A stretch of DNA of 64,000 nucleotides from Candidatus Doudnabacteria bacterium (GTDB taxonomy: Bacteria > Patescibacteriota > Doudnabacteria > UBA920): the NCBI GenBank assembly GCA_963837465.1, contig CAWINB010000001.1:501646-565645 (forward strand), in the 5' to 3' direction. Positions 7,329-55,733 of the stretch are shown here, in pieces. Each line of letters starts with the position of its first letter. Within the stretch, counting starts at the first letter, position 1. The notes below the pieces were generated by a model. It was not told the DNA's origin. It worked only from the letters and a program-made list of their open reading frames with translations, and did not search any database. Both the position numbers and the translations under genes were made by a program.

Positions 7329-7340
7329 GTCTGTAACCAT

Positions 7341-12470: not shown

Positions 12471-12474
12471 AACT

Positions 12475-24324: not shown

Positions 24325-25134
24325 ATGGAAATCCCAAATATCGCCAAATACTTAGAAATCTTTGAAAAATTAGGCCTAAATAAGAACGAGGCCCAAATTT
24401 ACGAGCTTTTGCTTAACTCCGGCCCATTAGGCGTAAAACCCATTCTTTTTAGAACAAAGCTAAAAAGAGGGAACGCTTACTATCATTTAGATAGCCTAAA
24501 AGCTAAAGGGTTAGTGGAAACTCAGACAGAGCGTGGTAAAACCATATTTATTGCCAAACACCCCGAACAGCTAGAGCTGCTTTTGGCACAACAAAAAGCC
24601 GCCTTAGCGGCGGCGGAAGAAGATCTGCATAAAACCTTGCCTGGCTTACGGAGTATGTTTCAACTAGCCACTACTAAACCGGGGGTAAAGTTCTTTGAGG
24701 GCAAGGACGGGATTATCCAAATTTACGAAACCTTGCTGGCACAAAGCCAAAGTATTGATAGTATAGAAGACAAAGGGGAGATGGTTGGTTTTTTTGCCGA
24801 TTATGTTAAGGAGTTTATTGCCAAGCGCATTAAGCAAAAAATCTTTAACCGGGTTATCGCGCCTTCTGCCAGCCCCATTAATGTAAGTTCGCCAAAGGAA
24901 TATAGGGAAGCTAGGTTGTTGCCAGCGGGGCAATTTCCTTTCCGCATGGATATTAAAATTGTCGGTAACTTGGTTTCTTTAATCTCTTTTCAAAAAGATA
25001 ACCCTGTAGGTATATTAATTGAAAATAAGGAAATCGCAGAAAACTACAAAATGCTTTTTGAATTGTTGTGGAAATTTCTTGAGCCGAAGACTGGGTTAAG
25101 AACCACGCCTGCTCAAACCTCAAGCGGCCAATAA
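24325..25134 (+). CDS. TrmB-family transcriptional regulator
   Basis: N-terminal TrmB wHTH (LGLNKNEAQIYELLLNSGPLGVKPI) and a C-terminal TrmB-like sensor region. Confidence 0.65.
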   Translation: MEIPNIAKYLEIFEKLGLNKNEAQIYELLLNSGPLGVKPILFRTKLKRGNAYYHLDSLKAKGLVETQTERGKTIFIAKHPEQLELLLAQQKAALAAAEEDLHKTLPGLRSMFQLATTKPGVKFFEGKDGIIQIYETLLAQSQSIDSIEDKGEMVGFFADYVKEFIAKRIKQKIFNRVIAPSASPINVSSPKEYREARLLPAGQFPFRMDIKIVGNLVSLISFQKDNPVGILIENKEIAENYKMLFELLWKFLEPKTGLRTTPAQTSSGQ

Positions 25135-28122
25135 AGTTTGGCTAGCTCTTTCTGCCGTCCTACCAGTTTTGTCTAAACTTTGCAAATATTGTGTATCTTG
25201 CATTACTTCCTTTAACGGTTTAATTTCAAAGCCGGGCAATTTAAATTTTTCAGCTAAATTTTTAGAAGATCCTTGTTTGGTGACAATCATAGCCAATGGC
25301 ACACGGTCTTGTCTTAAGTCTTGTCCTTCAAAGCCCGGGCCTAAAACAACCAAGGCCTCGAAAGGTTCGCGTTTTTGCGATAACACCGATTCAAGTTCAT
25401 GGAAACGATAGTAGTACCCGTCTAGGTCGCGGATGCTGTCGTCTATAATTACCCCTTGTGAAGCCATTCTGTCTGTTAAGTTGCTTAGAAATTCCGTATA
25501 TTTTTCTCCGCTGGCAAAAACGGTAGATCTTGTTGCTAATTCAACATCCAACTGATTTGGCAACAGGCGTTTGATATCGGATAAATCTCCAATCATAACG
25601 TTGGCCGGGAAAGCTTGGATGAATTGATGATAATCGGCTTCTTGCCAGTTTGGCCTCAAGTAACCGGTAATATTATTTTCTAAAGCATTTTTAGCCTTCT
25701 GAAATGCTGGTGATTGGTCGGCAACTTGTATTTTATAAGGATAAGTCGTGTTGCCATTAGCGTCACGAACGCTGGTTTGGTCAGGAACGGCTTGAGCCAG
25801 ACGGAGATTTTCCTGTATTTGAGGTAGAATGGTTTTTAAGGCATTAATATCAGTAGCCAAAGACTTTCTGTATTCAGGATTATAAGAAAAATTATCTTTT
25901 GAGGTTTCACCTTTAGCAACTACAATACATTTATAAATAAAGTCCGCAAGTCTACTTCTGTCTTCGGCGCTTAATTCTAACCCTGTTGCAGCTTGTAGGG
26001 CTTCAAAGTCAATTAACTTTTCAACTACTGACGCGAGAGGGTAGTAAATTTTATCCGATAGGGCTAACTCATTATATAAATTGGCCAAACCCGCCCGTGC
26101 GCGTTCTTCTTTACTAACTCCGCTTCCAGGCCCTATTTCCAAAAGTTTTTGGTTGGGTTTTTGAGCGGATTTTTCTTTTAGAAAACCTGCGAGGTCAATA
26201 CCAAACCTTCTGTCATAGTCAGCCATGCTTCGGTCTACACGCCAATGAATTTCCGGAATCGGTTCCAGTCTGCCCATTCGGGCCAGTGTAGATAAAGTAA
26301 TGGCTCGTTTTTCAGGATCCTTGAGCAGGCCAGCCAAAACCAACGCTTGCTGACTTTCAAATTGAGATAAGTCAACTTCTTTTCGCTCCAACAGGTAAGC
26401 AATATCTTTAAATTGTGAACGAATGACTTGTTCATCCGGTCGGGTTTGTTGTAACTCAGCAACAAAACGGTTAACGGAATCTACAGATAAAGTTTTACTT
26501 CTTTTTAATTCTCCACCCAACTCTGACAGAAAATCTTTGGCACGGGACATTAATGAACTTTCTATATCTTGTTGGCTGTAATGAACGCCAGGATACTTTT
26601 GCCGCATTTCTGTAAACGCCGTAGCCGCGGTCTGTTTAGCAGCGTCTAAAAATTCATTATAAGTTGTAAAAATTGTATTCGCGGTATTTTTTTGTTTCCC
26701 AAGCTCTAAAATGGCGTGGCCTAAGTTAGTATCGTAATCCAAAGATAGAAAAGTCCTAACGCCCGGCAAACCATATTGTTTGGCAAATTGAGTCAGTTTT
26801 GCTTCGCTGGTTTTTTCCAAAAGTGCCCGTGCCAAAACGAGCTGCTCGGCCCAAGGCAGGTTGTGAATTCCAATGCCCGCTTCCTGAAAAAAGCTAGTGA
26901 CTTTTCCCAAAACAAATTCAGGATCGTCTAAAGGCCTGAGCCGTTTATAATATTCGGCAGGATTTTCTCCCAACCTAGGTTTTAAATAGCTAGTAATAGA
27001 ATATTCTCTTACCCGATCTTTCATTTGCTTCCCCCCTATAATAGTATTCGTGGAAACATTCTTTGCTGTTGGTTCTTGTCCTCGTTCAATCAAGCGCCGT
27101 TTAACAGATTCCTGAATTTGCCCTAATTCTTCAGAACCTAAAAGAGGAAATGTTGCAACTATAGTTTTCTTTCCCTGTTCTTCTTTAACGATTGCGGCTG
27201 TTTGTTTGTCTAAGAGCCTTGCGGTCATGTGTTCAGGATCAATTTCTATACCTGTCCCTACTAATTTTTGTCTCCCAACATAATAATTAGCATATTGTCC
27301 GTCAGCATTGGAGAAAGAAACGTTTGGAGCTTTAGGGTTTAACCTTCTTTCATGTACATTAAACTCCGCTGCGGTCCGACTGCCAGCCAAAACACGAAAA
27401 TCAGATCTTTGCAACAGTCCTCCTTCCAGCAAATGTGGTAAATACTTAGTTGCAAACTTTAGAGGGTTGCCATCAAAACTTAACAATTTTTTATCTTCCA
27501 CGGTCTGTGGCTTTATACCCGCGAATTCATGAATCATAGAGGCGCTAAAAGGTACGCGCTGGCCACTAACCGGATGGGTTACTATTAGCCTGCCATCATT
27601 ACCTCGTTCGGCTTGCCATTTGCGAAGTGTGGTCGCAATGGCCATTTCGGCTAAATTAACTTGCTCTCCAGAATCCAAAACAAATGCTCCCGTCCACGAT
27701 TGATGTTTTTGTCCTAATTCCCAGGGTTCCAATAGGGCGGATTTGTTTCGCTCTGCATAACTATTCTGTCCTGTTGCCAACAAATCTTCCACATTTGCTG
27801 GCGTTGCCATCACAGGTCGCGCTATAGCTTTTTCGGCCGGAGTATTTTCTGTTTCTGATTTTGCTAAGCCGTTTGTGGAAGCTAAGACTCTTACCATATC
27901 AGGTTGCGTCATTTTTTTACTTGCGACATATATTTCATCTCGGGATGACCAATGCTTTAATTTTTCAACATCAAAAACAGGCTGTCCTGCTTCATAAGCC
28001 AGAACGCCGTATTTAGCCAAGCCTGCCAAAACACCTGCTTTGGTTTTTTCCTGTCCCTTAGGTTGTTCGGCAGGATTGGTTTGAATTTCAGACTCTGCTA
28101 CCGAACCATATTCAGCTCTCAT
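25120..28122 (-). CDS. large hypothetical protein (1000 aa) with an internal Rossmann/SAM-MTase-like motif
   Basis: LLEIGPGSG resembles SAM-MTase motif I. The rest is unrecognised. Convergent with the TrmB gene. Confidence 0.45.
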   Translation of the reverse strand: MRAEYGSVAESEIQTNPAEQPKGQEKTKAGVLAGLAKYGVLAYEAGQPVFDVEKLKHWSSRDEIYVASKKMTQPDMVRVLASTNGLAKSETENTPAEKAIARPVMATPANVEDLLATGQNSYAERNKSALLEPWELGQKHQSWTGAFVLDSGEQVNLAEMAIATTLRKWQAERGNDGRLIVTHPVSGQRVPFSASMIHEFAGIKPQTVEDKKLLSFDGNPLKFATKYLPHLLEGGLLQRSDFRVLAGSRTAAEFNVHERRLNPKAPNVSFSNADGQYANYYVGRQKLVGTGIEIDPEHMTARLLDKQTAAIVKEEQGKKTIVATFPLLGSEELGQIQESVKRRLIERGQEPTAKNVSTNTIIGGKQMKDRVREYSITSYLKPRLGENPAEYYKRLRPLDDPEFVLGKVTSFFQEAGIGIHNLPWAEQLVLARALLEKTSEAKLTQFAKQYGLPGVRTFLSLDYDTNLGHAILELGKQKNTANTIFTTYNEFLDAAKQTAATAFTEMRQKYPGVHYSQQDIESSLMSRAKDFLSELGGELKRSKTLSVDSVNRFVAELQQTRPDEQVIRSQFKDIAYLLERKEVDLSQFESQQALVLAGLLKDPEKRAITLSTLARMGRLEPIPEIHWRVDRSMADYDRRFGIDLAGFLKEKSAQKPNQKLLEIGPGSGVSKEERARAGLANLYNELALSDKIYYPLASVVEKLIDFEALQAATGLELSAEDRSRLADFIYKCIVVAKGETSKDNFSYNPEYRKSLATDINALKTILPQIQENLRLAQAVPDQTSVRDANGNTTYPYKIQVADQSPAFQKAKNALENNITGYLRPNWQEADYHQFIQAFPANVMIGDLSDIKRLLPNQLDVELATRSTVFASGEKYTEFLSNLTDRMASQGVIIDDSIRDLDGYYYRFHELESVLSQKREPFEALVVLGPGFEGQDLRQDRVPLAMIVTKQGSSKNLAEKFKLPGFEIKPLKEVMQDTQYLQSLDKTGRTAERASQTLLAA

Positions 28123-28258
28123 AAAGATATTATAACTTATTTTGGCTATAAATTAAATAGAAAACTAGGGCTTTTCCCTAGCTTTCAGGGGTCTAGACAA
28201 GGCACGTGGGTTGCGTCATCAATGTGTTGTAAGCCTTAATCATAGAAAGGAGCAACAT

Positions 28259-29644
28259 ATGCAAGAACTAACGACAAGCCCGGCGGTGGGTTTGGCTAAC
28301 CAAATTGCAGCGCCACCCCCAGGAGTTAAATACTGCCTTTATGCAAGGAAGTCCAGCGAGGACGACGAACGGCAAGCTTTAAGTATAGACAGTCAGATTA
28401 AAGAGATGCTGGCGGCCGCAGAGCGGGATGGATTGAACATAGCGGAAGTCAGGAAAGAAAGTCATTCGGCCAAAGCCTCAGGTTGCAGGCCGGTATACAA
28501 TCAACTAATAAATGAAATCAGAGCAGGATTTTTTAACGGCATCCTAACCTGGGCACCAGACAGGCTAAGTAGAAACGCTGGGGACTTGGGAGCCATAGTA
28601 GACTTGATGGACCAAGGGTTGCTTAAGGAAATCCGGACACACGGCCAAAGATTTTCCAACTCGCCGAATGAAAAGTTTTTATTAATGATTTTGTGTAGCC
28701 AAGCCAAACTTGAGAACGACAACCGCGGCATCAACGTAAAACGCGGACAACGGAGTAAGCTGGAGATGGGTCACCGTCCATGCCTGGCACCTCTTGGGTA
28801 CCTCAACGAAAAACTAACGACCAGAGGTGAAAGTAAAATACTTATAAATGCCGAACGAGCCCCAATCATAACAGAAATGTTTAATAAGGTAGCTTTTAAA
28901 CACTACACAGGGCGGGACTTATTTGAATGGATAAATGAGGAAACAAATTTTATCACAAGGGCAGGCAAGAAAATAGCTTTAAGTGTAATTTATCGGGTGC
29001 TGCAAAATTCATTTTACTATGGCAAGTTTGAATGGCCGGTCGGATCTGGCAAGTGGTATGACGGAAAACATAAACCGTTGATAACCAAAGAGCTGTTCGA
29101 CAAAGTCAGGGAAAATTTAACGATAGCGCCAAAGTCCAGGCCGGGAACAAAAGAGTTTAATTTTACCAAGCTCATGCGCTGCGGATCTTGTGGATCGGGC
29201 ATAACAGCCGAGGAAAAATTTAAAAAGCTGAGTGATGAGACAGTCAATAGGTATGTTTACTATAAATGTACAAAGTTTGCCAACCATGAGTGTGACGAGC
29301 CGTCAATTCGAGAGGAGGAGCTGACGACCCAGCTACTGGACTTAATGGACAAGATCGACCTAGACGAGCTGGGAGCCAGGAAAAAAGTGCAGGAGGAAAT
29401 TGAGAAGTATAAGAGGTTCAGCCAAGGGGTTTTCGGAAAAATGTTGACTCAGGAATACCACGTGCCGCAGGTTGACGTGAAGAATTATGCAAAATTTGTA
29501 CTGCAAAATGGAACGAGGGATGAAAAGCGCGACTTGCTGGCTTGCCTAAAATCCAAGATATTTTTAAAGAAACAGAAAATTTATATCGACAAAAAGCGAG
29601 CTAAGGAAACCGGTAGCGGAGAGATGGGAATCGAACCGAGTTAA
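28259..29644 (+). CDS. large serine recombinase (resolvase/invertase N-domain, recombinase domain, zinc ribbon)
   Basis: Start placed at MQEL after an AAAGGAG RBS. Catalytic YARKSSEDDERQALSIDSQ, a recombinase domain and a CGSCGSG...C ribbon. Confidence 0.85.
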   Translation: MQELTTSPAVGLANQIAAPPPGVKYCLYARKSSEDDERQALSIDSQIKEMLAAAERDGLNIAEVRKESHSAKASGCRPVYNQLINEIRAGFFNGILTWAPDRLSRNAGDLGAIVDLMDQGLLKEIRTHGQRFSNSPNEKFLLMILCSQAKLENDNRGINVKRGQRSKLEMGHRPCLAPLGYLNEKLTTRGESKILINAERAPIITEMFNKVAFKHYTGRDLFEWINEETNFITRAGKKIALSVIYRVLQNSFYYGKFEWPVGSGKWYDGKHKPLITKELFDKVRENLTIAPKSRPGTKEFNFTKLMRCGSCGSGITAEEKFKKLSDETVNRYVYYKCTKFANHECDEPSIREEELTTQLLDLMDKIDLDELGARKKVQEEIEKYKRFSQGVFGKMLTQEYHVPQVDVKNYAKFVLQNGTRDEKRDLLACLKSKIFLKKQKIYIDKKRAKETGSGEMGIEPS

Positions 29645-29675
29645 ACATTGGAAAAATAGCAGAAATAGGCAAAAC

Positions 29676-29712
29676 AAAATCACGGAACATTTGTTCCGTG
29701 ATTTTGTATTTG
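29676..29712. terminator. bidirectional intrinsic terminator
   Basis: AAAATCACGGAAC-attt-GTTCCGTGATTTT, a 13-bp stem flanked by an A-run and a T-run. It lies between the convergent serine recombinase gene and the 29858 gene. Confidence 0.55.
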
Positions 29713-29857: not shown

Positions 29858-30448
29858 TTATTTAGTTTTTTTTGTTTTTGCCGTAGTAATTTCTCCGTAC
29901 AGTTTAAGCAAAACTCTGCTTAAACGTTCTAAATCATTTTCCAGCTCCTTTTGATTTTCTTGCGTAACTTTATGTAATTCCCCTATGTCCAAAACAAAAC
30001 TAACCTTACTTTCCGGATAACGAAAGACATCGTTCAAGTCATCGCTTATGTCGCTATGCGATGTTAAAAATGAATCCCAAAATTTTAACTTGTAATATTT
30101 ATTACTTAATTCTAATAATTCCGGCAAGTAAGGGGAACTTTTTATACCTAAAGCGGAGAAGGCATTTTTTATTTCGTCTTGCAGTTGAGCATTATCGTGG
30201 ATTGCAGAAAATTCTTGAGTGATTCGGATATTTAGAGCTTTGAATAGCAATTCTATTGCGTGTTTTAAACACCAAATTATTGGTATTAACAATAATTTAT
30301 CAGTATAAATAGATCCTTCACGAAAGGCGTCTTTGGGTACATGGTGCGCATCATTTAATTCAAGAAGTCCAATACGGGATAGCTCCAAATATGCTTCGCA
30401 ATATTTAATCCAATTTACGAACCAAGCCTTACTTTTAATTTTTGTCAT
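29858..30448 (-). CDS. hypothetical protein (gene 4 of the four-gene operon)
   Basis: 196 aa, low GC, on the same strand as the three genes upstream of it. No recognisable motif. Confidence 0.45.
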   Translation of the reverse strand: MTKIKSKAWFVNWIKYCEAYLELSRIGLLELNDAHHVPKDAFREGSIYTDKLLLIPIIWCLKHAIELLFKALNIRITQEFSAIHDNAQLQDEIKNAFSALGIKSSPYLPELLELSNKYYKLKFWDSFLTSHSDISDDLNDVFRYPESKVSFVLDIGELHKVTQENQKELENDLERLSRVLLKLYGEITTAKTKKTK

Positions 30449-30485
30449 AGTATTAAGTTAATGCCGAAGCTATTATTTAGTGGCT

Positions 30486-31112
30486 TTAATCCGTAAGTAA
30501 TTTTTCTATTGGAAATTCGGTCATTCCGGGATTTGGCCAGAATTCTCCAATAGTTACCGTTTTTTCAAACTTCAAAATAAATTTAATGCTGTCTAGGGGG
30601 TAAGAGGTAGTTATAATGGATCGTCTTATTTCGTCTGTATCTATTTCGCCGCCAAACTCCAAAACAAGAAGCAAGGAAACAGGGGTCTTAGCGTACTTGT
30701 TTGGTATGTTGTTTATAAACCTAATTAAATCTTGAGTACTTTTTTCATTAGGATTTTTTCCAAATCTTTTTAATTGAAAAGCGGGGCCTTTTGATTCATG
30801 ATCGGTAAGAGTGCCCTTAACAATCGCAATGTCTACGGGAGTCGCGCTCTCCAAGTAACTTCTGAAAACTGTTTCAATTTCGGCAGCCGAGAAGGTTGAT
30901 TTTTTCGGGACTAAATTCGTCTTATTTTTTTTGAGTTCAAAACCGATTAAGGTTGGTGATTTCCATAGATCCTCAAAAAATTTACTAAGGACAATAGCAA
31001 TCACCAGTTCGTAGTCTTTCGATCCTGGGCCGTGACCAAATTTCCTTAAAAAATCCCTTATGGTACTCCGTTCAACAAAAACATACTCATCTAAAATCAT
31101 AAAATTAGGCAA
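30486..31112 (-). CDS. hypothetical protein (gene 3 of the four-gene operon)
   Basis: 208-aa ORF, 17 nt downstream of the 1224-aa gene. Confidence 0.45.
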   Translation of the reverse strand: MPNFMILDEYVFVERSTIRDFLRKFGHGPGSKDYELVIAIVLSKFFEDLWKSPTLIGFELKKNKTNLVPKKSTFSAAEIETVFRSYLESATPVDIAIVKGTLTDHESKGPAFQLKRFGKNPNEKSTQDLIRFINNIPNKYAKTPVSLLLVLEFGGEIDTDEIRRSIITTSYPLDSIKFILKFEKTVTIGEFWPNPGMTEFPIEKLLTD

Positions 31113-31129
31113 CTAGCATTAAAATATTT

Positions 31130-34100
31130 TTAATGAGTGAAGTTTTTTAGCCCCCAATATTTACTTGGATTTTTTTCAAACAGCACTTTAAGCATCTTTT
31201 TCGCACGCGAGTCAGTTTTGTTTTGTTTAAGTAATTCTATTACCGGTTCAGTTTCGTGAATATCGAATTCCTTCGGAAAAGAAGCAATCAGGCTAACCGC
31301 TTTTAGAAAATGTTCAAGGCCGAAAATCTTATAAATTTTTTCCAAAATTGCAAAATTATCCATTTCCGGCCACCAGTACATTCCACGATAGGTTTCGTCC
31401 TTAATATTCGTAGGATTTTTCAAAGTTTCTTCATAAAATTTAGATTCGGTGGTTAGGCACTGGATGTATAAATCATACCACTCTTTAGTGCCAAATTTAC
31501 TCCCAATAGCTTCATTTATGGCCATGTACAAAATACCAAATACACGATGTTCATATTTATCGTTTAGCATTTTGAAATACTTTAAGGATATGGCTATTTC
31601 TTTTTCTTTAATAACCCCGTTCGAACCATCGCGCACCGGCTTTTCAGATACTGCGGCAAACTTGAACAAGTTTTTTCTGTCTTTAACTTTGGCAAAAATT
31701 TGTTTTATTAAATCCTCAAAAGGCTTACTGTCCCACGGTTGAAGATCGTCATATAAGCCTGGGCGAGCCCATTTCCAATTTTTATAATCATCCTTTCGGT
31801 ATTCTGCATAATAGATAAACAGAGGGGCGGATTCATCCAGCGTTTCTTCTGGAAAACCAGCAAGTGTTCGTACCAAATACAACGCCCTCGCATGGCTTAG
31901 AGCCCTAATGCTGTCAAAGGGTTGTAAAATACTTCTGACCAAAGATTTTTGGACGTTATCCCTGACATTTTTAGGAGCATTTTTTACTTTGTCAAGCATA
32001 CCAAAGGCTAAACCCTCGACTTCTTTTGATAATTTAAGGGCATCCACCACATCGTCGCTGAAAAATAAAGTATCACGCTTGTCCGGCAAGACGGTCAAAC
32101 GATTTTTTGCCAGCTGTGATAGCGCAAAACAAGCCATGTGCAAGACGTAATAATTATCGTCCTCGCACAAGATTTTTGTAAGATCAATAGTTTGCCGCAA
32201 GTAACTTCTGCCGTCTAATACCGCACATTTCATTAGCTCCCAGCCGCACCAGCCGCGAACTGAAGTTATAGAGTGAGTCTCTTCGCCTTTTTTTACGATT
32301 CTATAGTGCTCATTGTACTTATTTTTTCGATCATCAGGATCTTGCCCGGGTAAATAGGGATCAGGGTCTTTTATAAAAACTTTAATGATCCTGAGAGCCT
32401 CGGCAATTTTCTTTTTTGTTGCGAGCCGGCCGGCAAATTGTACTAGGGCACTACGTGCGCCAGCGTTAGTAATTTTAATCTTTAGTTTGTTAACGTCATT
32501 GTCAAATTTGTTTAAAAATGGGTCTACAAAATCATTATAAATTTTCATTAACAAATCTGAATCGTCTGAATCGTCATTGCCCTGACTGTTAAAAATACTG
32601 TAGCACAAAACTACTTGCTGACTAAGACTTAGTTTAGGTTTCGAGCCTAGTTCATTGATTATTGCTAAAGCCCTTGGATAGCCTTCGGGTTTGGAAAAAA
32701 TTTTATTTAAAAGCTGTGCTGCGGTAAAGCCGCCTAATTTATCACTTTTATCCGCCCCAAAATAACTATTAAATAAAAAACATTTAAATAATTCGGTTGC
32801 AAAATCAAAATCGCTGTCTAAAAGCTGAGTGATAGAATCGATAGAATCATGTAAACTTAAAAAAAAGCGCTTAGTGTAATAATCGGAGCTACAAAACCAT
32901 TTTTTCATCTCTTGTTTTGCAGGTTCGTAACCCTTAGTGGATTTAGCTAATTGGGTCACTATCTGTTCCACAAAAGCGTTTACTGGTACGTTAAATTTTT
33001 TGATTGTTAACTCAACTAATCTCCACTTTTTTTCGATTGAAAGAGAGGCTTGATTGATTACAGCTTGGTAAATCAAATCACGTTTATGAGGTATACCTCT
33101 TTTGGACAAAATGAACTCTTTCAAAATTTCAAATGCTTCTTCTGAAACCTCACTGTTAGTGCTTGCATATCTATCTAAGACAATTGGATAGACGGCCCGA
33201 TTTAAAAAATCTGGTCGCTGCTTGCTAACTTTTCTTTCAGGGTTGATACACCTTTGCTTTATAAGTTGCCAATTTTTATTTGGATTTGAGTCGTAAAATT
33301 TTCTCAAGGCTGGACTCAAAATGTAGATAAAATGGCGGTCATAAGCATGGTAGCCGCCACTATATGAAATACCCCCGCCCATATGCTCCCACCCCTTAAA
33401 GGCAACTCTGCGATCAAATTTTCTGTAAAATTTATCGTACTGATCTACTATAATTTTTACTAACTTTTCAAAGCGGGTAAAAAAGTCTTTTTTAATAAAC
33501 CCCTCTTGGAGCCAGTCTCCCAAAATAGAATAAATTTCCGAAGGTGCATAAAAGGTAAATTCTCCGTCATCCTCGGTAATATTAAAAGACGTGATAATTA
33601 AATCAAATATTTTTTGCTTTAATTTATCGCCAGCAAGACTGTAAATCTCATGCAGTACCTTACAAACCTCGCCTTTTTCCCACTCCTTGCGATCGTGACC
33701 GTTATCTTTTAAATAGAAAAATGCTTTCTCATTAAAAGTTATAAGATTTTTAAGAACTAAAAATGCGTCCTCTAGATAGCGCTTACCTTGTTTACTCGCA
33801 ATAATTTTTTTTACAATTTTTGTTACATCAACTTCAAGAAAATCTGCTTGATAAAACCTTCTAAGGATTTTAGTTTTAGTATCCAAAAAATTCAAAACAA
33901 ATTTTATATTTTTTTCACTATTGAGATTTTGCTCAAAGATCCGGCTCAAGCTAAAAGAAAATCTATAAACCTTGTATAATTGCCAAATTTCACCCCAATC
34001 CTGAAGATTTCTAATCTTTTTTTGTGATAAGCGATCCAAAATAAATGAAGCTAAGGATGGCTTCGCTGAGATTGCCGCTAACTGGCCGCTGGCCCAAACC

Positions 34101-34804
34101 GGCGAAAGATTATTTTCAAGAGCATCAATTACATTTTTAAACTGGATTTCTGTTTTAACTCTAGCATCGTCAAAATACCCACTATATTCTTTTGCTTTCT
34201 GCCTAATATCAGCCACGTTTTTTAGCACCTCTTCACGGGTAAATTTTGCCCCTTTACTTGAGCCTTCATAAATCTTGCGAATAAGTATGCTGTCGCACTT
34301 AGCCTCAAGCTCATCTTCTGGCAACCAAAAATCTAACAGTTCGCTAAATAATGAATATACAGTCAATTGGTTTGCGGTTTGGTCAACCACCCAAAAACGA
34401 ACTTTTTCAAGGACGATTATCTCCTCTTCAGTAAATTTTTTCTTTTTAAATTTTGGCGCTATAAATTTACTCCAGTATTTTATATTTTCAACATCTTTAG
34501 ATAATTTTTCATCCAGCTTTGTGCAAATAATAAGTATTTCGTCCTTGTCATCTATAGTTTTTTTTAGGAGGATGTTGGAAAGGATCTCTTTTAAATTTGA
34601 ATAGCTTAAAGGTTTTGATCTGGCCTTGGATTCACAAATAATTTTTTTACCATCTTTAAAAACAAGATTAAAATCTTGAAAGCCGGGAGTCTCTAGTTCA
34701 ATATACAAAAAATTACCATTCCTTAAATACTGTAAAAATAAGGACATGGCTGCCCATGATTGAGCGTTGATCCCTTTATAGTTGCTTTGACCTGGTATTT
34801 TCAT
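31130..34804 (-). CDS. very large hypothetical protein (1224 aa), possible N-terminal PD-(D/E)xK nuclease-like region followed by an extended helical body
   Basis: YIELETPGFQDFNLVFKDGKKIICESK gives a D...ExK arrangement. The remainder appears all-helical and repetitive. A 4-nt start overlap joins it to the upstream gene. Confidence 0.5.
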   Translation of the reverse strand: MKIPGQSNYKGINAQSWAAMSLFLQYLRNGNFLYIELETPGFQDFNLVFKDGKKIICESKARSKPLSYSNLKEILSNILLKKTIDDKDEILIICTKLDEKLSKDVENIKYWSKFIAPKFKKKKFTEEEIIVLEKVRFWVVDQTANQLTVYSLFSELLDFWLPEDELEAKCDSILIRKIYEGSSKGAKFTREEVLKNVADIRQKAKEYSGYFDDARVKTEIQFKNVIDALENNLSPVWASGQLAAISAKPSLASFILDRLSQKKIRNLQDWGEIWQLYKVYRFSFSLSRIFEQNLNSEKNIKFVLNFLDTKTKILRRFYQADFLEVDVTKIVKKIIASKQGKRYLEDAFLVLKNLITFNEKAFFYLKDNGHDRKEWEKGEVCKVLHEIYSLAGDKLKQKIFDLIITSFNITEDDGEFTFYAPSEIYSILGDWLQEGFIKKDFFTRFEKLVKIIVDQYDKFYRKFDRRVAFKGWEHMGGGISYSGGYHAYDRHFIYILSPALRKFYDSNPNKNWQLIKQRCINPERKVSKQRPDFLNRAVYPIVLDRYASTNSEVSEEAFEILKEFILSKRGIPHKRDLIYQAVINQASLSIEKKWRLVELTIKKFNVPVNAFVEQIVTQLAKSTKGYEPAKQEMKKWFCSSDYYTKRFFLSLHDSIDSITQLLDSDFDFATELFKCFLFNSYFGADKSDKLGGFTAAQLLNKIFSKPEGYPRALAIINELGSKPKLSLSQQVVLCYSIFNSQGNDDSDDSDLLMKIYNDFVDPFLNKFDNDVNKLKIKITNAGARSALVQFAGRLATKKKIAEALRIIKVFIKDPDPYLPGQDPDDRKNKYNEHYRIVKKGEETHSITSVRGWCGWELMKCAVLDGRSYLRQTIDLTKILCEDDNYYVLHMACFALSQLAKNRLTVLPDKRDTLFFSDDVVDALKLSKEVEGLAFGMLDKVKNAPKNVRDNVQKSLVRSILQPFDSIRALSHARALYLVRTLAGFPEETLDESAPLFIYYAEYRKDDYKNWKWARPGLYDDLQPWDSKPFEDLIKQIFAKVKDRKNLFKFAAVSEKPVRDGSNGVIKEKEIAISLKYFKMLNDKYEHRVFGILYMAINEAIGSKFGTKEWYDLYIQCLTTESKFYEETLKNPTNIKDETYRGMYWWPEMDNFAILEKIYKIFGLEHFLKAVSLIASFPKEFDIHETEPVIELLKQNKTDSRAKKMLKVLFEKNPSKYWGLKNFTH

Positions 34805-35406
34805 ACTGATAAAACTTGACCTTCACGAATTTTACTTTTAACTGAAGCGACTGCGGGGCGCTCTTTTTCCAAATAGCCCATAATTTTTTCACAGTAATTG
34901 GCGAAGTTGCTGCTACCGAAATTGTAATTTACATTCAATAAACGATTGTACTTTATTAGCAGATCCTCGATTAGACTTATAAAACGGTCGATATCGTATA
35001 TCCTAAAATTTGGCAACTGTTTTTTTCTTAGTAATTCAGAAATATAATCACGGGCATCTTGGTTAATTTTTCCCGAACAAGCAAAATAGAATTCTTCAAT
35101 GTGTATTTGAGATTTATTATCCAATGGACTAGTAAATTCTCTCACCGCTGCTTCCTCAATTGCCTTGGTCATTTTACGTACGTCGTTTTTTCCACTTTTT
35201 TTTACATCACCAATTTTTATAAACAGGCAGCAATGCTTGTGCTCGCCAAACAAATCTCTATAAGCAAAGTATACATCTTTGCCTTTCTCAAATGGCCCTT
35301 GGAAATCTTCTGCGGCGAAAGCACCAAGGGCTTTTAGCAAAGGAATAAAGACTTTAATCCTTACTCCATTTTCTGACAACCGTTTCAATTGTGCTCTTAT
35401 AGTCAC
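34801..35406 (-). CDS. hypothetical protein (gene 1 of the four-gene operon)
   Basis: 201 aa, translationally coupled to the 1224-aa gene by an ATGA overlap. Confidence 0.45.
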   Translation of the reverse strand: MTIRAQLKRLSENGVRIKVFIPLLKALGAFAAEDFQGPFEKGKDVYFAYRDLFGEHKHCCLFIKIGDVKKSGKNDVRKMTKAIEEAAVREFTSPLDNKSQIHIEEFYFACSGKINQDARDYISELLRKKQLPNFRIYDIDRFISLIEDLLIKYNRLLNVNYNFGSSNFANYCEKIMGYLEKERPAVASVKSKIREGQVLSV

Positions 35407-35414
35407 GTTTTAAA

Positions 35415-37118
35415 TTATATTATATTTAGCTGTAATCTTTTCTCTATTAGCCGCTTCCTTGCTTCTAGAAAACCATCAAAATTTGCGATGCTCCACTCGC
35501 CGCTGGGAATAAGGTGTTTTTGTAGCTCGGCCTTGTTGCTTCCGATTGATTGCGTCCATTCTTGAAAAGGGGTATTGGACTTTGTTTTGTTCTCAGTGCT
35601 GCCGATATACCGGATGTTATAGATCGAGTTAAACTTGTCTTCCGGGATCCCTGCCTTTTTTAACTCAGAGCGAGAAAAAATATGATCCTGTTCCGGTGCG
35701 TTGCCTTTCAGCCGGGGAGCAAAATTTATTGCGCCGCCGTAACAGATAGCCAAAACGAGATAGCTGTCCCGGGAATTGTAGGAAACGCGATCAAGATCCT
35801 CAGCAGTCACCTGGCCGAATTTTTTAGTTTCATTGCGGATTTTGTCTTTGATAGCTTCTGCCGGAAATTGATTACCAGGGTTCTGGTCTATTGCCTCTTT
35901 GCATTTATATAGCACTGTGTCCGACTGTCCGCCGAATACTCCGCTTAGCAGGGTGTTGATTAGCCAGACCCTGATTACCGTAATCTGAGCTTCCGAAATG
36001 CAGTTTTTCTCTTCGCCGATTCCTTTAATGTCATTCTTAAAAGCCCAATAGACGATAGGGATCAGGGCATTATGGCTTGGTATAGTTCGCTCGCTGGTAA
36101 GATAAAAACGGTCTAGCAGGTCAAAGACAAGCGAAATCGCGCCGCTAATTTTCACCCAATCTTTTTTTAACGTCTCGATTGTTTTTGGTTTGAAATTTTT
36201 TACCTTGTACAACAACTCTTCCGTGGTCGTTGCATATAGCAATAGGGTTGTTTTTAATATAAAATCGTTGGTAAATTTGTAACGATCTTTGTTGATCTTT
36301 GAAAGTAGCTCATCAAATTTTTCCCGCGCATCTCCCCACTTTGATTTAATAGTCGAGAACAACAGATCGGAGTACGTTAGCTCCGTTCCGCCCGAGTTCG
36401 TTCGCACAAAAATATCCAGTACCCGATCATAGTCCTGCACTGTTTCTGGATAATAATAGATTAGTTTTTCGGTTTTTAATTTATCGTATAGCTGGGCAAT
36501 GCCGTTTTTATGCTTGTCTGTTAGCTCAATCGAATACTCGTCTTTAATGCCCTGGGCCGTGTTGTTTATTTCCGAGAAAAATTTTTGGATGGAGTAAATG
36601 TCCTTTACCCTATACCAGAGTTTTCTAGGTCCGTCATCGTCAGCCTCCTCCAAAAAACTAGTACCTTTTTTCTTGTTAAAAAACTTAAACTCGTAGAGTA
36701 AATCGTCTTCACTTTCTTCCTCGCCGCTAAGGATATTGAAGTATAGTTCATATGGATTGGTATGAATAATATAGTTTCCTTTTAGTACCAAGAAAAAAGT
36801 CGTCAGCCGTTGTTGGCCATCAAGAACCAAAAGATACTCGCGCACCGGGTCGATGCTGGTGTCCTCCGTGTTAGTTTCTAGGCTTGTATCCACAAACCGA
36901 AGTTTTTTTATCTTTTCGTCCTGTAAATATTTCCCTTCAAGTCGCCAAAACAGGAATGTGCTAATTGGATAGTCGCGCATTATGGAATCAAAAAGCGCAT
37001 ATACCTGATCAGGCCGCCAGACGAAATTACGCTGAATATCAGGCAAAAAATATTTGCGATTTATGTCCTCGACAACCTCAGATATAGATTTTCTAGTATA
37101 GTCTTGAAGCATAAGCAA
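35415..37118 (-). CDS. GmrSD-like type IV restriction enzyme (DUF262 N-domain + DUF1524/His-Me C-domain)
   Basis: DUF262 signatures LPDIQRNFVW and DGQQRLTT. The C-terminal region ends with an HNH-like motif (HIFSRS). Confidence 0.8.
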   Translation of the reverse strand: MLMLQDYTRKSISEVVEDINRKYFLPDIQRNFVWRPDQVYALFDSIMRDYPISTFLFWRLEGKYLQDEKIKKLRFVDTSLETNTEDTSIDPVREYLLVLDGQQRLTTFFLVLKGNYIIHTNPYELYFNILSGEEESEDDLLYEFKFFNKKKGTSFLEEADDDGPRKLWYRVKDIYSIQKFFSEINNTAQGIKDEYSIELTDKHKNGIAQLYDKLKTEKLIYYYPETVQDYDRVLDIFVRTNSGGTELTYSDLLFSTIKSKWGDAREKFDELLSKINKDRYKFTNDFILKTTLLLYATTTEELLYKVKNFKPKTIETLKKDWVKISGAISLVFDLLDRFYLTSERTIPSHNALIPIVYWAFKNDIKGIGEEKNCISEAQITVIRVWLINTLLSGVFGGQSDTVLYKCKEAIDQNPGNQFPAEAIKDKIRNETKKFGQVTAEDLDRVSYNSRDSYLVLAICYGGAINFAPRLKGNAPEQDHIFSRSELKKAGIPEDKFNSIYNIRYIGSTENKTKSNTPFQEWTQSIGSNKAELQKHLIPSGEWSIANFDGFLEARKRLIEKRLQLNII

Positions 37119-37130
37119 TAAGTAAGTTAA

Positions 37131-39398
37131 TTATAATTTTTTTATATCGTTCAGCGCTTGCTCAATATTTCCATTATGCACTAAGAAAAAGTGTAATTTG
37201 TTTTTGCCCAACGACTGCCATGTTTCGGCCAGCGCAACTTTGTAAGCTGTGTCCTCGTTGCTAATCCGATCCTCGCCTTTCCATTCCAGTGCCAGAATAT
37301 TACCCTTTTTAGTTAAAGCTACAAAGTCCGGATAAAACTTATTTTTCTGCCAACCGTGCAAGAAAAACGGGTCCTTCTTTTCCCGGTTCCTAACCCAAAA
37401 TTCAATATTGGGCAGCGTATCCAAATCCAGCCTCTCTATGAAATTCAGCTCTTCCTTGTTTAATTTATCAATTTTGCGGTAATAATTTTTATTGAACTCC
37501 TGCGGTATTTCCTGCTCTATCGTGATGGTTTCCGGAAACGGCTCAAATGGCTGGGCTGTAATCTTTTTCTTGGCCAGCAAGGAGTCAAAACTCTTTTTGG
37601 CATAGGCGGCCAGAATGCCATCTATAACTGAAGCCAGCTTATCACAAAAGACATAGCGATTGACGGATAGCTCGGCCAGCGAGCGATGTTTAAGCTGATA
37701 GGTCAAAGCCTTTTCAATAAATTTGACCTTGTCGGATTGCTCAAGTAGGGTAAAGCGCAATTTTTTATCAAGCCATAGCATCAATTCCTGCTGCGAGGAT
37801 TTTCTAACGCTGTAAGGCAAGTTTAAAATCTGCTGCCGCCCTTTGATCCAGTGATCGCCCTGAATATCAATAACTGCGCGGCCGTCGCTGTCATAGTGAA
37901 TTTCAAAATCAAATTCGGCATTTTGTTTTGCCAACTCAAAATTATCACCGATCAACTCTTCAAAGGTAAGCGGCTCGTCGCCTAATGCCATCATAGGAAC
38001 GGCGAAATCTTTTTTGACAGCGCGTTCAATTACCCGGGGATCCTTTTGGTCTTTATCGGAAGCGTTAAGTATGTCAGCTTTGCTGTAACCGTTGTTTTCT
38101 AGGCCACCGATGATTTGGGAGGCCGCTTCATTAAAGTTACGAGCCGAGGCAAACACATAGCAGCGGTTTAACTCTTCCTGCTGTTTGCTCTTGGCATAAG
38201 GCATACGGATGATGCGGCCGATAATCTGTTCTACGGCTATCTTTGCGCCAATGTTGGCCAGAGAGATAAGCACATAGGCATAGGAGCAGTCCCAACCTTC
38301 AGCCAGAGCATTAACGGTAATAATGTAACGGATGGGGCATTTTTTGCTGAATAAATCTACTCCCTCTAACCCGTTCTTTTCCGATACTTTTATAGCTATT
38401 TCCTCTTCAGCTATTTTAAGTTTAAGCAAAAAATCCTTGACCTGCTCAACGGTTACATTGTTTTGGGTTTTGCTATTGGGCTGGGCTTGAATTAAAGCGA
38501 TGGGCCGAATGTATTCACCCTTGTTTTTCTTGGCAGTTTTTTCTAACTCTTCCCTCTGATGTAGGCCGCGCTGGAGAGCCTGCTCCCACTGGTTGGCACT
38601 TTCTAGCACAATGGGAATTTTAACCATCTGTTCTTCTTTTAGCTCTCCGGCGCCAATATTCACTAAAATATTGCTGCCGGAACGAGGGGTGGCAGTATAC
38701 TCAATAATAAAGTCTGGGTTTAATTCCTTTAAAAAATCAACTGATAGCTGAGTTTGGGTACGATGGCCTTCATCGATAACAACCAGCGGGTTATTAAGCC
38801 GGATGACATTTGCGAGAGAATAGACTACTGTGCCTTCCTCGTCTTTTTCAAGCCCCGAGTCGTCGCTGATATGCTGGAAATGATCTAGTAAATTGCCGTT
38901 CTCCTGATAAACTTTATATTTATTCTGTAAAGTTTTTTCTTTGCGGAAAGCCTCCAAGCTGGAAACAATTATGCAAAGGTTATCTTCTACATCTTCCTTG
39001 CGGATTCGCAACGCCTCTTCATTGGAAAATATCCGGATACCATTTTCAAAGGTTTCATCTAAAATTTGTCGGTGTGGATCATGCCGGTCTTTAAACTTTT
39101 TTAGGGTTTGGGTCTTAATGGCTTCCGACGGCACGAACCACATAACAATACCGCGCTCCATTTTGCTCTTTAACACGGAACTCATAATCTCGCCAAGTGC
39201 ATTACAGCCGACAAGGGTCTTGCCGCCGCCCGTGGGGATCTTTATGCAGACGTAAGGAACTTCGCCAAAAAATTCAGAGTTGTATGACTGCTCGGCGATT
39301 TCAATAAAGGCACGCTTGGCGCTACCTACCTCTTGCAGAGTTTTTAGATAAGCCCCAAGTTTGTCGAGCGCAATTTGTTGATATTTTTTAAGTTCCAT
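37131..39398 (-). CDS. res: Type III restriction enzyme Res subunit (SF2 helicase-nuclease)
   Basis: Walker A PTGGGKTLV, DEGH box (VVIDEGHRTQ) and helicase motif VI. Confidence 0.85.
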   Translation of the reverse strand: MELKKYQQIALDKLGAYLKTLQEVGSAKRAFIEIAEQSYNSEFFGEVPYVCIKIPTGGGKTLVGCNALGEIMSSVLKSKMERGIVMWFVPSEAIKTQTLKKFKDRHDPHRQILDETFENGIRIFSNEEALRIRKEDVEDNLCIIVSSLEAFRKEKTLQNKYKVYQENGNLLDHFQHISDDSGLEKDEEGTVVYSLANVIRLNNPLVVIDEGHRTQTQLSVDFLKELNPDFIIEYTATPRSGSNILVNIGAGELKEEQMVKIPIVLESANQWEQALQRGLHQREELEKTAKKNKGEYIRPIALIQAQPNSKTQNNVTVEQVKDFLLKLKIAEEEIAIKVSEKNGLEGVDLFSKKCPIRYIITVNALAEGWDCSYAYVLISLANIGAKIAVEQIIGRIIRMPYAKSKQQEELNRCYVFASARNFNEAASQIIGGLENNGYSKADILNASDKDQKDPRVIERAVKKDFAVPMMALGDEPLTFEELIGDNFELAKQNAEFDFEIHYDSDGRAVIDIQGDHWIKGRQQILNLPYSVRKSSQQELMLWLDKKLRFTLLEQSDKVKFIEKALTYQLKHRSLAELSVNRYVFCDKLASVIDGILAAYAKKSFDSLLAKKKITAQPFEPFPETITIEQEIPQEFNKNYYRKIDKLNKEELNFIERLDLDTLPNIEFWVRNREKKDPFFLHGWQKNKFYPDFVALTKKGNILALEWKGEDRISNEDTAYKVALAETWQSLGKNKLHFFLVHNGNIEQALNDIKKL

Positions 39399-39399
39399 A

Positions 39400-40815
39400 T
39401 TAGTAAACCCTTACCTCGTAAGGGATTTGTTTAAAGGTTAAATTATATTGGTCTAAAATTGTGTCATTGATCAGGCACTTGTCGGCGTAGACGACTTTTT
39501 GAAAGCCATCCTTTTTAAGTTTATTTAAAAACGACTTGCCTAAAATATTATTGCCCTTTTCCTTGTATAACAGGTAATATTCCGTTTCGTTAAACTGCCC
39601 AACAAAATTTCCACTAATCTCTTTTGGATTTATGTTAGTCTTGGTCTCGGTAAAATAAATATACGTGGCCAACTGGTTAAATTCGCATTCTTCATCAATC
39701 TGCCCCTGCTCGTTAAACAGCGGTTTACCAAGTTCGCAATATTCAAAGCCCTCTTTGTAGCCGTATTTTATGATAGCGCGTTTTACCCGTTCGGCCGTGA
39801 TATCTTTAGCAACCGCATCTTCCATTTCCACCATAATAAATTTACGATTGCCGCCATCTTCCTTATTTAAATCTAAAACCGCGTGGCCGGTGGTGCCGGA
39901 TCCAGCAAAGGAATCTAATATTAAGTCAGCATCTTTAGTTGCCAATTGTAGCATCCTTTTAATTAAACTCACTGGTTTTGGATAATCAAATGGCTGGTTC
40001 TCACCAAATATACTTTTTAGATCTTTTTTTGCTGAATCATTCGAACCAACCTCGCCGTGCTTCCATAAAGTTTTTGGCTTTAAGCCTTGTTGAACCTCCG
40101 TTAAGAATCTTTTCAAATTTGGAGTTGAGTCGCCGCTTTTTCCAAACCAAACCCTGTTTTCTTTTATTAAAATTAGCATATCTTCCTGTGCGTAAATCCA
40201 GTGCTTGTTAGGCGGCAAATTCCATACTCGTCCAGTTACAGAAGACTTGATTGGATAGCGGCCATTTTTTCGTTCCTCTTTTGCATACAAAGGAATTGCT
40301 TTCCAAGGCCCTCTAGGATCTTTGTCGGGATTAGAATACCGGGCGTCGGCCTCTTCCGACCTGGGCAATAAACCTAGTGGCTTAGTTTCTATTGATTTGG
40401 CATAAACAAAAATATACTCATGGCAATCGGAAATCATTTTTGAGTCATTTTTTGTTGTGTACATTTTTTCCCAAACTACCTGGGCAATAAAATTTTCCGC
40501 CCCGAAAATCTCATCCAACAATAACTTTAAATTGGCACCTTCCTTATCATCAATTGAAATAAAAATCACCCCCTCATCTGCCAATAAATCTCTTAACAAT
40601 TTCAGTCGGGGATACATCATACACAGCCATTTATCATGGCGATTTAAATCCTGCGACTCCGCGCCCACTACTTTGCCCAGCCATTTTTTTATTTTTGGCG
40701 AGTTAACTTTATCGTTATAAACCCAGCCTTCGTTGCCGGTATTATAGGGCGGATCAATGTAGATGCATTTTACTTTGCCACCATAAAAAGGCATCAGAGC
40801 CTTTAGGGCTTCCAA
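39400..40815 (-). CDS. mod: Type III restriction-modification Mod subunit (N6-adenine DNA methyltransferase)
   Basis: IYIDPPYNTG (DPPY) and SAM motif LDSFAGSGTTG. Lies 2 nt upstream of res. Confidence 0.85.
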   Translation of the reverse strand: MEALKALMPFYGGKVKCIYIDPPYNTGNEGWVYNDKVNSPKIKKWLGKVVGAESQDLNRHDKWLCMMYPRLKLLRDLLADEGVIFISIDDKEGANLKLLLDEIFGAENFIAQVVWEKMYTTKNDSKMISDCHEYIFVYAKSIETKPLGLLPRSEEADARYSNPDKDPRGPWKAIPLYAKEERKNGRYPIKSSVTGRVWNLPPNKHWIYAQEDMLILIKENRVWFGKSGDSTPNLKRFLTEVQQGLKPKTLWKHGEVGSNDSAKKDLKSIFGENQPFDYPKPVSLIKRMLQLATKDADLILDSFAGSGTTGHAVLDLNKEDGGNRKFIMVEMEDAVAKDITAERVKRAIIKYGYKEGFEYCELGKPLFNEQGQIDEECEFNQLATYIYFTETKTNINPKEISGNFVGQFNETEYYLLYKEKGNNILGKSFLNKLKKDGFQKVVYADKCLINDTILDQYNLTFKQIPYEVRVY

Positions 40816-41557: not shown

Positions 41558-41745
41558 AATAACAATTTAGCCTAAACCACGGGCAACCGCGGCATGGCAT
41601 TAACCAAGACTCATCCTAGGTACTGAACCCCGCGTTCAGCGCTCTAGGATGAGCCATACCCGAAAGGGTGTGGGCCGTAAGGCCAGCTGGCGCGGGGCTT
41701 TGTGATTATATACACAATATTCCTACGTCGGCAGAAAGAAAAAGC
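41558..41745 (+). ncRNA. conserved structured RNA leader, copy B
   Basis: TGgTATAAT extended -10 lies immediately upstream. The architecture matches copy A, with compensatory substitutions in the outer stem (CTCATCCTAG/CTAGGATGAG) and in the distal hairpin (GGCCGTAAGGCC). Confidence 0.5.
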
Positions 41746-48277: not shown

Positions 48278-48514
48278 AGGGATTTTGGACAGGAAAATAG
48301 ACATAAATAGACAGTACAGTGGCCCTGTGTTTGTATGTCTATTTATAACCAATTTTAGGCTTATTTATAAGGAAAATTGGACTTAGACTGTGTCTATTTC
48401 ACGTCTAAAGATTTTTTGCTACTGCCACAGTCCCCCAATTAGGCCCTTAAGGTTAGGTTAAGTTTATCTACTCTATATTTTCTGTTATAATAAAGAAAAA
48501 TAAATCTTTTCTTT

Positions 48515-51172: not shown

Positions 51173-51411
51173 TCTTTGTATTTTAATGTTTTCTTTTTTT
51201 ATTTTTGTTTTTATCCTCGAAAATTTTTTATTTTAACCTTTCGGCTAATGAAACCACTCTGCAAAGAGATTGGTTCGCCGACTCTCAATCCATAAACGGA
51301 TTGAACAAGACAGTAAACAACGACGTTCCTTGTGAGAATACCGGTCAGGGATAGCTCCGCGGAGTGTCCCGCGCGTTATGGATGGATCAAGGAATACGGG
51401 GCGGGTGGGCC

Positions 51412-51533
51412 CTTCTGGTGCCGCTAATGCCAACTGGAATCCGGACAATTCGCGCGTCAATTTCAACTGGAACGATCCGGCGAATGTCAATCCGAAGTTG
51501 GGCACCCGTCCCGCGGTCGTTGTGGGCATAGGG
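51412..51533 (+). repeat. DGR template repeat (TR)
   Basis: Non-coding copy with AAC-rich codon positions (ANANWNPDNSRVNFNWNDPANVNPK if translated). Confidence 0.8.
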
Positions 51534-51534
51534 G

Positions 51535-52902: not shown

Positions 52903-52914
52903 TTATTTTAGTTT

Positions 52915-55624: not shown

Positions 55625-55733
55625 TGTCGCTGAGGTTTTGCCGGTAGGTGGAGATACAAAAAGGGTCCCCCACCTACCGGCGGCAACCTTTCGGATGCCG
55701 TCCACCTGTCCTTGCGAACAGGCACCTCAGCGA
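55625..55733. other. nested-helix structured element in an intergenic region
   Basis: Outer pairing GTCGCTGAGGT ... ACCTCAGCGAC encloses GCCGGTAGGTGG ... CCACCTACCGGC (11 bp). GTCGCTGAGG occurs a third time at 55761. Confidence 0.35.

Follow-up and report, generated by a model that had tools for sequence, protein, structure and literature searches.

A conserved solenoid protein with an exchangeable upstream gene as a candidate two-gene immune module in Patescibacteria

Genes A and B of a Candidatus Doudnabacteria bacterium probably constitute a two-gene immune module of an undescribed family. They are the first two of four minus-strand open reading frames (ORFs), A to D, which occupy positions 29858–35406 of a 64,000-nucleotide (nt) stretch of DNA (assembly GCA_963837465.1, contig CAWINB010000001.1, positions 501,646–565,645), here called the window. 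Our confidence in this reading, in which C and D are independent neighbours on the same island, is moderate. B would be the constant part of the module, and the gene upstream of it a replaceable, translationally coupled effector cassette. A sequence-only reading of the window had put forward all four genes as one candidate novel system. The presence of a candidate is supported, but not as a four-gene unit: no homologue of C or D was found beside a homologue of B in 110 related loci searched with phmmer, tblastn and family hidden Markov models (HMMs), and the conserved unit is A plus B.

Two overlapping genes of no assigned family

Gene A (34801–35406, minus strand; 201 amino acids (aa), GTG start) is the cassette gene of the window locus, and gene B (31130–34804, minus strand; 1224 aa) encodes the conserved core protein. 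The stop codon of A and the start codon of B overlap in an ATGA at 34801–34804 (minus strand), which was read directly from the sequence and is predicted to couple the translation of the two genes. Gaps of 29 nt separate B from C and of 37 nt separate C from D. All four ORFs lie where the sequence-only reading had placed them, and the overlap and the low guanine–cytosine (GC) content that it described were found as well; only the start of C is revised (see below).

None of the four proteins has a direct HMM match in Pfam, PADLOC-DB 2.0.0, NCBIfam 20 or PHROGs. The sole PADLOC match, between A and CSD_V, covers 20 residues at chance level (E = 0.0014); beyond it no PADLOC system model matched. 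Sequence and profile searches against the Protein Data Bank (PDB) likewise gave only chance-level matches. The ORFs are nevertheless not chance reading frames, because each is conserved: B has 192 homologues, A has 22 and C has 13, and the homologues of D form 131 cluster representatives. The earlier statement that none of the products belongs to a recognisable family therefore stands as far as direct HMM searches go, but not at the level of fold and family, as A has a FokI/Mrr-type fold and 25 of 60 members of the D family match HEPN.

A nuclease head on a conserved solenoid

Homologues of B were searched in a collection of 5.8 billion proteins. Among the 120 listed of the 192 that were found, identity to B ranges from 37 to 67%, almost all are full length (1172–1237 aa) and every one is annotated at source as ‘hypothetical protein’. 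The 30 genome loci with a B relative are mostly from Patescibacteria, also known as the candidate phyla radiation (CPR), with single loci in Margulisiibacteriota, Deltaproteobacteria, Syntrophaceae, Gammaproteobacteria, Elusimicrobia and a Woesearchaeota archaeon. B relatives are also encoded on 146 metagenome stretches, 80 of which were kept for locus analysis.

The AlphaFold2 model of B (residues 1–1200, 113 sequences) is confident, with a predicted local distance difference test (pLDDT) score of 90.4 and a predicted template modelling (pTM) score of 0.71, and comprises a nuclease-like head and a solenoid. Residues 1–215 (34160–34804, minus strand) form an alpha/beta domain; residues 216–1224 (31130–34159, minus strand), about 1000 aa, form an all-alpha solenoid of the HEAT/ARM type, in which two short strands are the only departure from helical repeats. 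The sequence-only reading had anticipated both parts, guessing a PD-(D/E)xK arrangement from the motif YIELE...DFNLVF...ICESK, which is found in B, and about 1000 aa of helical repeats after it. Across 113 homologues E38, D44 and E58 are invariant and K60 is kept in at least 90% (codons of D44, 34673–34675; E58, 34631–34633; K60, 34625–34627). In the model D44 lies ahead of strand 2, and E58-S-K60 lies on strand 3. The head is structurally similar to solved Cap4-family domains, and its profile aligns with that of PF14130-positive cassette proteins (probability 69%, E = 4.4e-5). PF14130 (Cap4_nuclease/DUF4297) itself matches neither B nor 33 family members, even at E ≤ 0.1. Given the invariant residues, their placement on the strands and the profile–profile match to Cap4, the modelled head is best described as a Cap4-type PD-(D/E)xK nuclease domain that falls below the Pfam sequence threshold.

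There is no sign of a nucleoside triphosphatase (NTPase) in B: the model contains no Rossmann-like sheet past residue 210, and no P-loop, NACHT or NB-ARC match was found in 33 members. The solenoid is well conserved, with a mean column identity of 48% and many invariant Arg and Lys residues.

The gene upstream of B is a variable cassette

ORFs in the related loci were called with a simple in-house script and the neighbours were clustered; 84 loci with an intact B N terminus were used to analyse the position upstream of B. The gene directly upstream is nearly always on the same strand and encodes 180–390 aa, and in most of the 84 loci the junction with B is between −4 and +6 nt, typically a 4-nt overlap. 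The upstream gene itself is not conserved, and belongs to one of several unrelated classes: AlbA_2/Schlafen-like proteins (23 loci), Cap4-like proteins of about 300 aa (18 loci) or about 265 aa (13 loci), the A family (17 loci, plus the window), Mrr-like proteins of about 350–390 aa (5 loci), a small two-member cluster (2 loci), a CHAT protein (1 locus) and a transmembrane (TM) protein (1 locus). Four loci (L006, L058, L081 and L086) have no tight upstream partner. Searched with Pfam, 88 cassette proteins gave matches to SLFN_AlbA_2 (23), Cap4_nuclease (10), CHAT (4) and Mrr_cat (4).

The cassette of the window, A, has a restriction endonuclease-like alpha/beta fold of the PD-(D/E)xK (FokI/Mrr) type and a C-terminal tail that is predicted to be disordered. 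In its active site D44 and K64 are invariant, and position 62 is a Phe, giving F62-I63-K64 in place of (D/E)xK; one of the invariant residues E40, E85 or E105 might substitute for the absent second acidic residue. There are 22 A homologues in total, and all family members on informative contigs stand directly upstream of B.

A short motif, [S/D/N]-E-G-x, occurs 5–8 residues before the stop codon in A-family and Cap4-like cassettes, namely in A (34805–34830) and in the cassettes of L001, L003, L008, L014, L017, L018 and L022, and is missing from the Schlafen, CHAT and TM cassettes. In A the motif falls in the tail that is predicted to be disordered. It might serve to dock the cassette protein onto B, or be a side effect of the ribosome-binding site of B.

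Cassettes are exchanged between closely related B genes

B proteins that are 90–95% identical to one another occur with different cassette classes. The B proteins of L041, with a Schlafen cassette, and L044, with a Cap4-like cassette, are 91–95% identical, and L007 (Schlafen) and L005 (Mrr-like) are a further example. Overall, the nearest B relative has a cassette of the same class in only 33 of 70 cases. In loci with differing cassettes, DNA homology begins exactly at the start codon of B and, where upstream sequence exists, stops just before the cassette. Between L040 and L042 it takes in the upstream restriction–modification (R-M) genes, is lost about 40 nt ahead of the cassette and is found again within the first 35 nt of B. 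Such breaks at the cassette borders mean that one gene has been replaced between conserved flanks, and the exchange is, as judged from these alignments, recent and precise.

In 13 loci B is shorter (about 900–1015 aa), starts at profile positions 217–329 and has no nuclease head. The upstream partners of short B proteins are TM proteins in L023, L026 and L029, CHAT proteins in L027, L100 and L115, and an A-like protein in L101; in L106–L108 they are A-like or Cap4-like domains with a C-terminal extension of about 100 residues. Because B proteins without a nuclease are still paired with cassettes, the solenoid appears to be the core of the family, and the fused Cap4-like head seems to behave as one more exchangeable effector. 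The extension in L106–L108 aligns with exactly the solenoid segment, its first ~100 residues, that the B downstream does not have. Statistical support is weak (hmmsearch E = 0.002–0.005 in a tiny database; hhalign P = 0.013), and the extension has a different best match against the whole B profile, so that gene fission linking these cassettes and the short B proteins is suggestive only.

The module is embedded among restriction–modification genes

In the window, A and B are appended to the end of a co-directional R-M operon (35415–40815, minus strand) that comprises Type III Mod (39400–40815) and Type III Res (37131–39398), both identified with Pfam and PADLOC, and a GmrSD-like gene (35415–37118; PADLOC HEC-05, E = 6e-135). 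From Mod to D, seven co-directional genes follow one another at gaps of 1–37 nt. On the other side, a large serine recombinase (28211–29644, plus strand; Pfam Resolvase, Recombinase and Zn_ribbon_recom) marks the island border. The flanking genes named in the sequence-only reading are thus confirmed by Pfam and PADLOC, and with them the defence-island setting.

The same company is kept elsewhere. When 150 neighbours were sampled at random from no more than four genes away from the module, the 16 commonest Pfam families were all R-M or defence families, including Eco57I, N6_N4_Mtase, TaqI_C, N6_Mtase, HSDR_N, Methylase_S, MmeI, GmrSD_N, ResIII and AAA_15/21. In at least 34 of 80 loci the cassette is directly preceded by an R-M gene (Pfam counts: N6_Mtase, 14; Eco57I, 14; ResIII, 7; N6_N4, 5; Methylase_S, 5; HSDR_N, 2), and methyltransferase motif IV is present in the preceding gene in 20 of 80. 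This gene shares the strand of the module in 66 of 81 loci, and in 25 the gap is no more than 8 nt. R-M types I, II, IIG and III are all represented among the linked systems.

The CPR loci L004 and L008 have the same Mod–Res–cassette–B order, again next to a serine recombinase, and their proteins are highly similar to those of the window (Res, 1027 bits; recombinase, 506 bits). Close serine recombinase homologues (up to 526 bits) lie within 10 kilobases (kb) of B in 13 of the 30 genome loci. GC content is 0.34–0.38 between positions 30 and 35 kb of the window, as against 0.40–0.57 in the rest of it; together with the synteny with recombinase-bearing CPR islands, this points to a horizontally moving island. 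From these contexts, the module would typically be the last unit of an R-M operon and travel on recombinase-bearing islands, mainly in CPR bacteria.

Downstream of B, a conserved gene was considered and rejected, as the genes there are heterogeneous (TM, DUF2726-like and HEPN-like proteins, recombinases and housekeeping genes). Proteins that carry a HEPN motif of the RNxxxH type are encoded just downstream of B in L004 (13630–14283), L006 (7679–8575) and L027 (4849–5310). By HMM comparison, these proteins and D, which lies two genes downstream of B in the window, are not mutually homologous; their position may reflect coincidence within defence islands or a loose association.

Comparison with known systems

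By its sequence features and gene order, the A–B pair is predicted to be a modular sensor–effector immune system of an undescribed family, and literature searches found no description of it. The closest parallel in architecture is DSR2, in which a SIR2 enzymatic head is joined to a HEAT-repeat sensor that binds phage tail tube protein (PMC11263360). B shares with DSR2 the N-terminal effector, the long C-terminal HEAT region and the lack of an NTPase. However, the head of DSR2 is a SIR2 NADase, whereas that of B has a PD-(D/E)xK fold and no SIR2 match in Pfam or PADLOC; DSR2 is a single gene without a swappable upstream cassette; and B has no PADLOC DSR match, nor is DSR2 among its best structural matches.

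Other systems share single features with the module. Avs3 (AVAST type 3) carries a Cap4-like nuclease head on a STAND NTPase core, but B has no STAND or P-loop NTPase. The repeats of Avs proteins are TPR rather than HEAT/ARM, the A–B module has a second effector in trans and there is no PADLOC Avs match. Cap4 itself belongs to cyclic-oligonucleotide-based anti-phage signalling systems (CBASS), but no SAVED domain or CD-NTase was found by Pfam and PADLOC in the window genes or in the 150 and 80 neighbours of B homologues. Lamassu resembles the module in its variable upstream effector; its partner LmuB is an SMC/Rad50-like ATPase, whereas B is a solenoid with no ATPase and has the Cap4-like domain in the same protein. 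PADLOC gave no Lmu match, and no SMC-type protein is encoded in the A–D string or directly beside B homologues.

Schlafen (AlbA_2) nuclease domains are experimentally validated anti-phage effectors that cleave transfer RNA (tRNA) (PMC12330615), and AlbA_2/Schlafen is also the commonest cassette class beside B (23 of 88 proteins). Of the prokaryotic Schlafen defence proteins (pSlfns) described, however, 97% are fused to a sensor domain, whereas the Schlafen linked to B is a separate gene of about 265 aa and the cassette in the window is of the A family. ARMADA, also considered, is a YprA-helicase system that is unrelated to A–B. The Patescibacteria defences ‘Dallas’ and LdgA were recovered from libraries with 2-kb average inserts, and their proteins reportedly have no structural homology to known ones (PMC12366544). 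On both points of this description, insert size and lack of structural homology, A–B is set apart, and identity with either is unlikely.

Proposed mechanism and alternatives

If A and B form an immune module, the solenoid of B would act as a sensor or scaffold, a role for which DSR2 is the precedent. The infection cue would be a phage protein or else a state of the DNA that arises around restriction. On meeting the cue, the solenoid would license the nuclease head of B and the co-expressed cassette effector, and nucleic acid would be destroyed; with other cassette variants, tRNA or protein would be cut or the membrane damaged. The invader, or the infected cell, would thereby be stopped.

Several observations weigh against this reading. 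Searches of IMG/VR viral contigs and PLSDB plasmids yielded no family member. With a Phe in place of the canonical second acidic residue, A is perhaps not an active nuclease. Profile–profile comparison with hhalign revealed no docking or adaptor domain shared among the cassette classes, so that a physical coupling of cassette to B is only putative, and the exact junction distances, coming from a simple ORF script, are approximate. Furthermore, the degree of conservation of the solenoid is more readily reconciled with a conserved ligand than with a fast-evolving recognition of a phage protein; DNA or a conserved phage machine would fit. A bolder form of the proposal, which we regard as rather unlikely, would make the NTPase-free HEAT solenoid with its Cap4 nuclease a universal chassis for hot-swappable cassettes, a second-line guard that ends R-M operons, senses anti-restriction or restriction DNA intermediates and ranks among the main innate-immunity systems of CPR/Patescibacteria.

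The most serious alternative, although still an unlikely one, is that A and B are not partners at all: B would be a self-sufficient, DSR2-like defence nuclease, and the position upstream of it a recombination hotspot for independent cassettes. Precise cassette replacement between conserved flanks is what a hotspot would produce, B carries its own invariant catalytic motif, the cassette classes have no common adaptor domain and four loci (L006, L058, L081 and L086) do without a tight upstream partner. A hotspot would not readily account for the overlap or few-nt junction seen in most of the 84 loci whichever of the unrelated cassette classes is present, or for the invariable position of A-family members on informative contigs directly upstream of B. 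It also fits poorly with the short B proteins, which keep a cassette although their solenoid would otherwise be without an effector, and with the weak alignment of the L106–L108 extension to the solenoid segment missing from B. Equally concerned with the neighbourhood of B is the idea, which we consider quite improbable, that the module is an accessory or guard of R-M systems, with B monitoring the restriction system or its products (anti-restriction proteins or DNA ends) and triggering the effectors. There are analogies in PrrC, which is embedded in the EcoprrI hsd locus, and in PARIS, which senses Ocr. The frequency, orientation and tight spacing of R-M genes upstream of the cassette (at least 34 of 80 loci, 66 of 81 and 25, respectively), the continuation of Mod–Res–GmrSD by the module in the window and a conserved solenoid with invariant basic residues, which would suit a DNA-like conserved ligand, all agree with such a role. 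But a specific protein–protein partnership is unlikely, given the unrelated types (I, II, IIG and III) of the linked R-M systems; the directly upstream gene is not an R-M gene in about half of the loci; and in compact CPR genomes defence genes cluster anyway.

Two further explanations can be given very little weight. The proposal of the sequence-only reading that A, B, C and D are components of one system has in its favour that the genes are co-directional, have short gaps and meet no strong terminator before a hairpin at 29674–29707. It is largely refuted by the comparative data: neither C nor D has a homologue beside any of the ~110 B homologues, homologues of C and D do not occur together and each is found in unrelated contexts, and other loci have heterogeneous genes downstream of B. 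It is just as hard to credit a toxin–antitoxin-like addiction module in which the cassette would be the toxin, B would neutralize it and the pair would stabilize the recombinase-borne island. The serine recombinase near B in 13 of 30 genome loci, the toxic-type enzymes among the cassettes and the tight translational coupling of both genes would be expected of one, but there is no known precedent for an antitoxin of 1200 aa that itself contains an invariant nuclease motif, R-M genes are more strongly linked to the module than recombinases are, and plasmids and viral contigs yielded no family member.

Should the two-gene immune module prove correct, it would represent a widespread immune family, with more than 170 loci and at least 190 protein clusters. 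The family is found chiefly in CPR/Patescibacteria, a very large clade with very few known defence systems. The family would combine an NTPase-free, sensor-type solenoid with one fused effector and a second one supplied as a cassette that is exchangeable even between B proteins more than 90% identical. It would amount to a natural experiment in which DNases, tRNase-type Schlafen proteins, a caspase-like protease and membrane proteins are coupled to one chassis, and its siting at the 3′ end of varied R-M operons would make a functional link between restriction and a second line of defence directly testable. For annotation, a real two-gene unit is separated from two unrelated small neighbours that would otherwise be lumped with it in one operon.

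Genes C and D and the ends of the gene string

Gene C (minus strand) extends over 30486–31112 if read from a TTG (208 aa) or over 30486–31100 if read from an ATG (204 aa). The ATG at 31100 is the likelier start; the 204-aa form is the one in public collections, and this start is common to the homologues. Gene D occupies 29858–30448 (minus strand; 196 aa). The 30 genome loci with a B relative gave no match to the family HMMs of C and D. By tblastn, C was found only in the loci of its own homologues and D nowhere, and homologues of the two were not found together. C and D are therefore best seen, on this comparative evidence, as independent small island genes.

The 13 homologues of C follow a 548-aa TM/helical protein after type I R-M, an integrase or a kinase-like ORF. 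C has an invariant pattern, E31...D90...Q109-x-K111, that could be restriction endonuclease-like; no PDB match was obtained at the profile level. In L034 (1803–5669 and 8524–9144) a C homologue lies in an integrase-rich element with a gene for a 1288-aa nSTAND (Avs-like) NTPase, which is flanked by ORFs of about 200 aa of no assigned family. The D family is a broad one of helical proteins of about 200 aa, with 131 cluster representatives, and its members are solitary, with unrelated neighbours. The HEPN matches among the 60 members mentioned above are to Pfam PF05168 (25 at E ≤ 0.01, best 5e-7), and D itself does not match. Nor does D have the R-x(4-6)-H motif: it has a conserved D136-x2-N139-x3-R143-Y-P145 with no His 4–6 residues after the Arg. 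From family membership, D is a putative distant HEPN-like helical protein.

A promoter-like site (TAGAGA-16-TATAAT, 35419–35446, minus strand) lies 13 nt ahead of the GTG of A, within the 3′-terminal part of the GmrSD gene. It is a consensus match only, at 10 of 12 positions, and the number of such sites in the region is not above that in shuffled sequences. The hairpin at 29674–29707, which has a 15-bp stem, lies after D, between the convergent stops of D and the serine recombinase. It is the sole strong hairpin of the minus-strand gene string and is probably a bidirectional terminator that ends it. Just past the serine recombinase, in the same low-GC island, a 1000-aa ORF (25120–28122, minus strand) has no match in Pfam, PADLOC, NCBIfam or PHROGs.

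Other elements in the window

Three paralogous modules lie on the plus strand (5540–9413, 11832–14443 and 56445–59738). Each consists, in order, of a ParB_N plus N6/N4 DNA methylase protein (about 450 aa), an ORF of about 150 aa and an ORF of 510–690 aa with a terminase-like RNaseH domain, and the three share 36–70% protein-level similarity (tblastx). They suggest that the window holds several related satellite- or prophage-like elements. The LOOT RNA motif (Rfam RF03000) is present in four copies that score 49.5–70 bits, at 9585–9713 (plus), 41569–41684 (plus), 55679–55809 (minus) and 60508–60628 (plus). Two of the copies directly follow ParB-methylase/terminase-like modules and precede an 85%-identical gene for a 281-aa protein (10293–11138 and 61201–62046); about 750 nt, including a 178-aa ORF, lie between another copy and the Type III mod gene downstream of it. 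Finally, the region 46496–55491 (plus strand) begins with a second large serine recombinase (46496–48277), after which come an 885-aa AAA_5 (dynein/McrB-like) ATPase and an 858-aa transglutaminase plus VWA protein, and may be another conflict or defence cluster.

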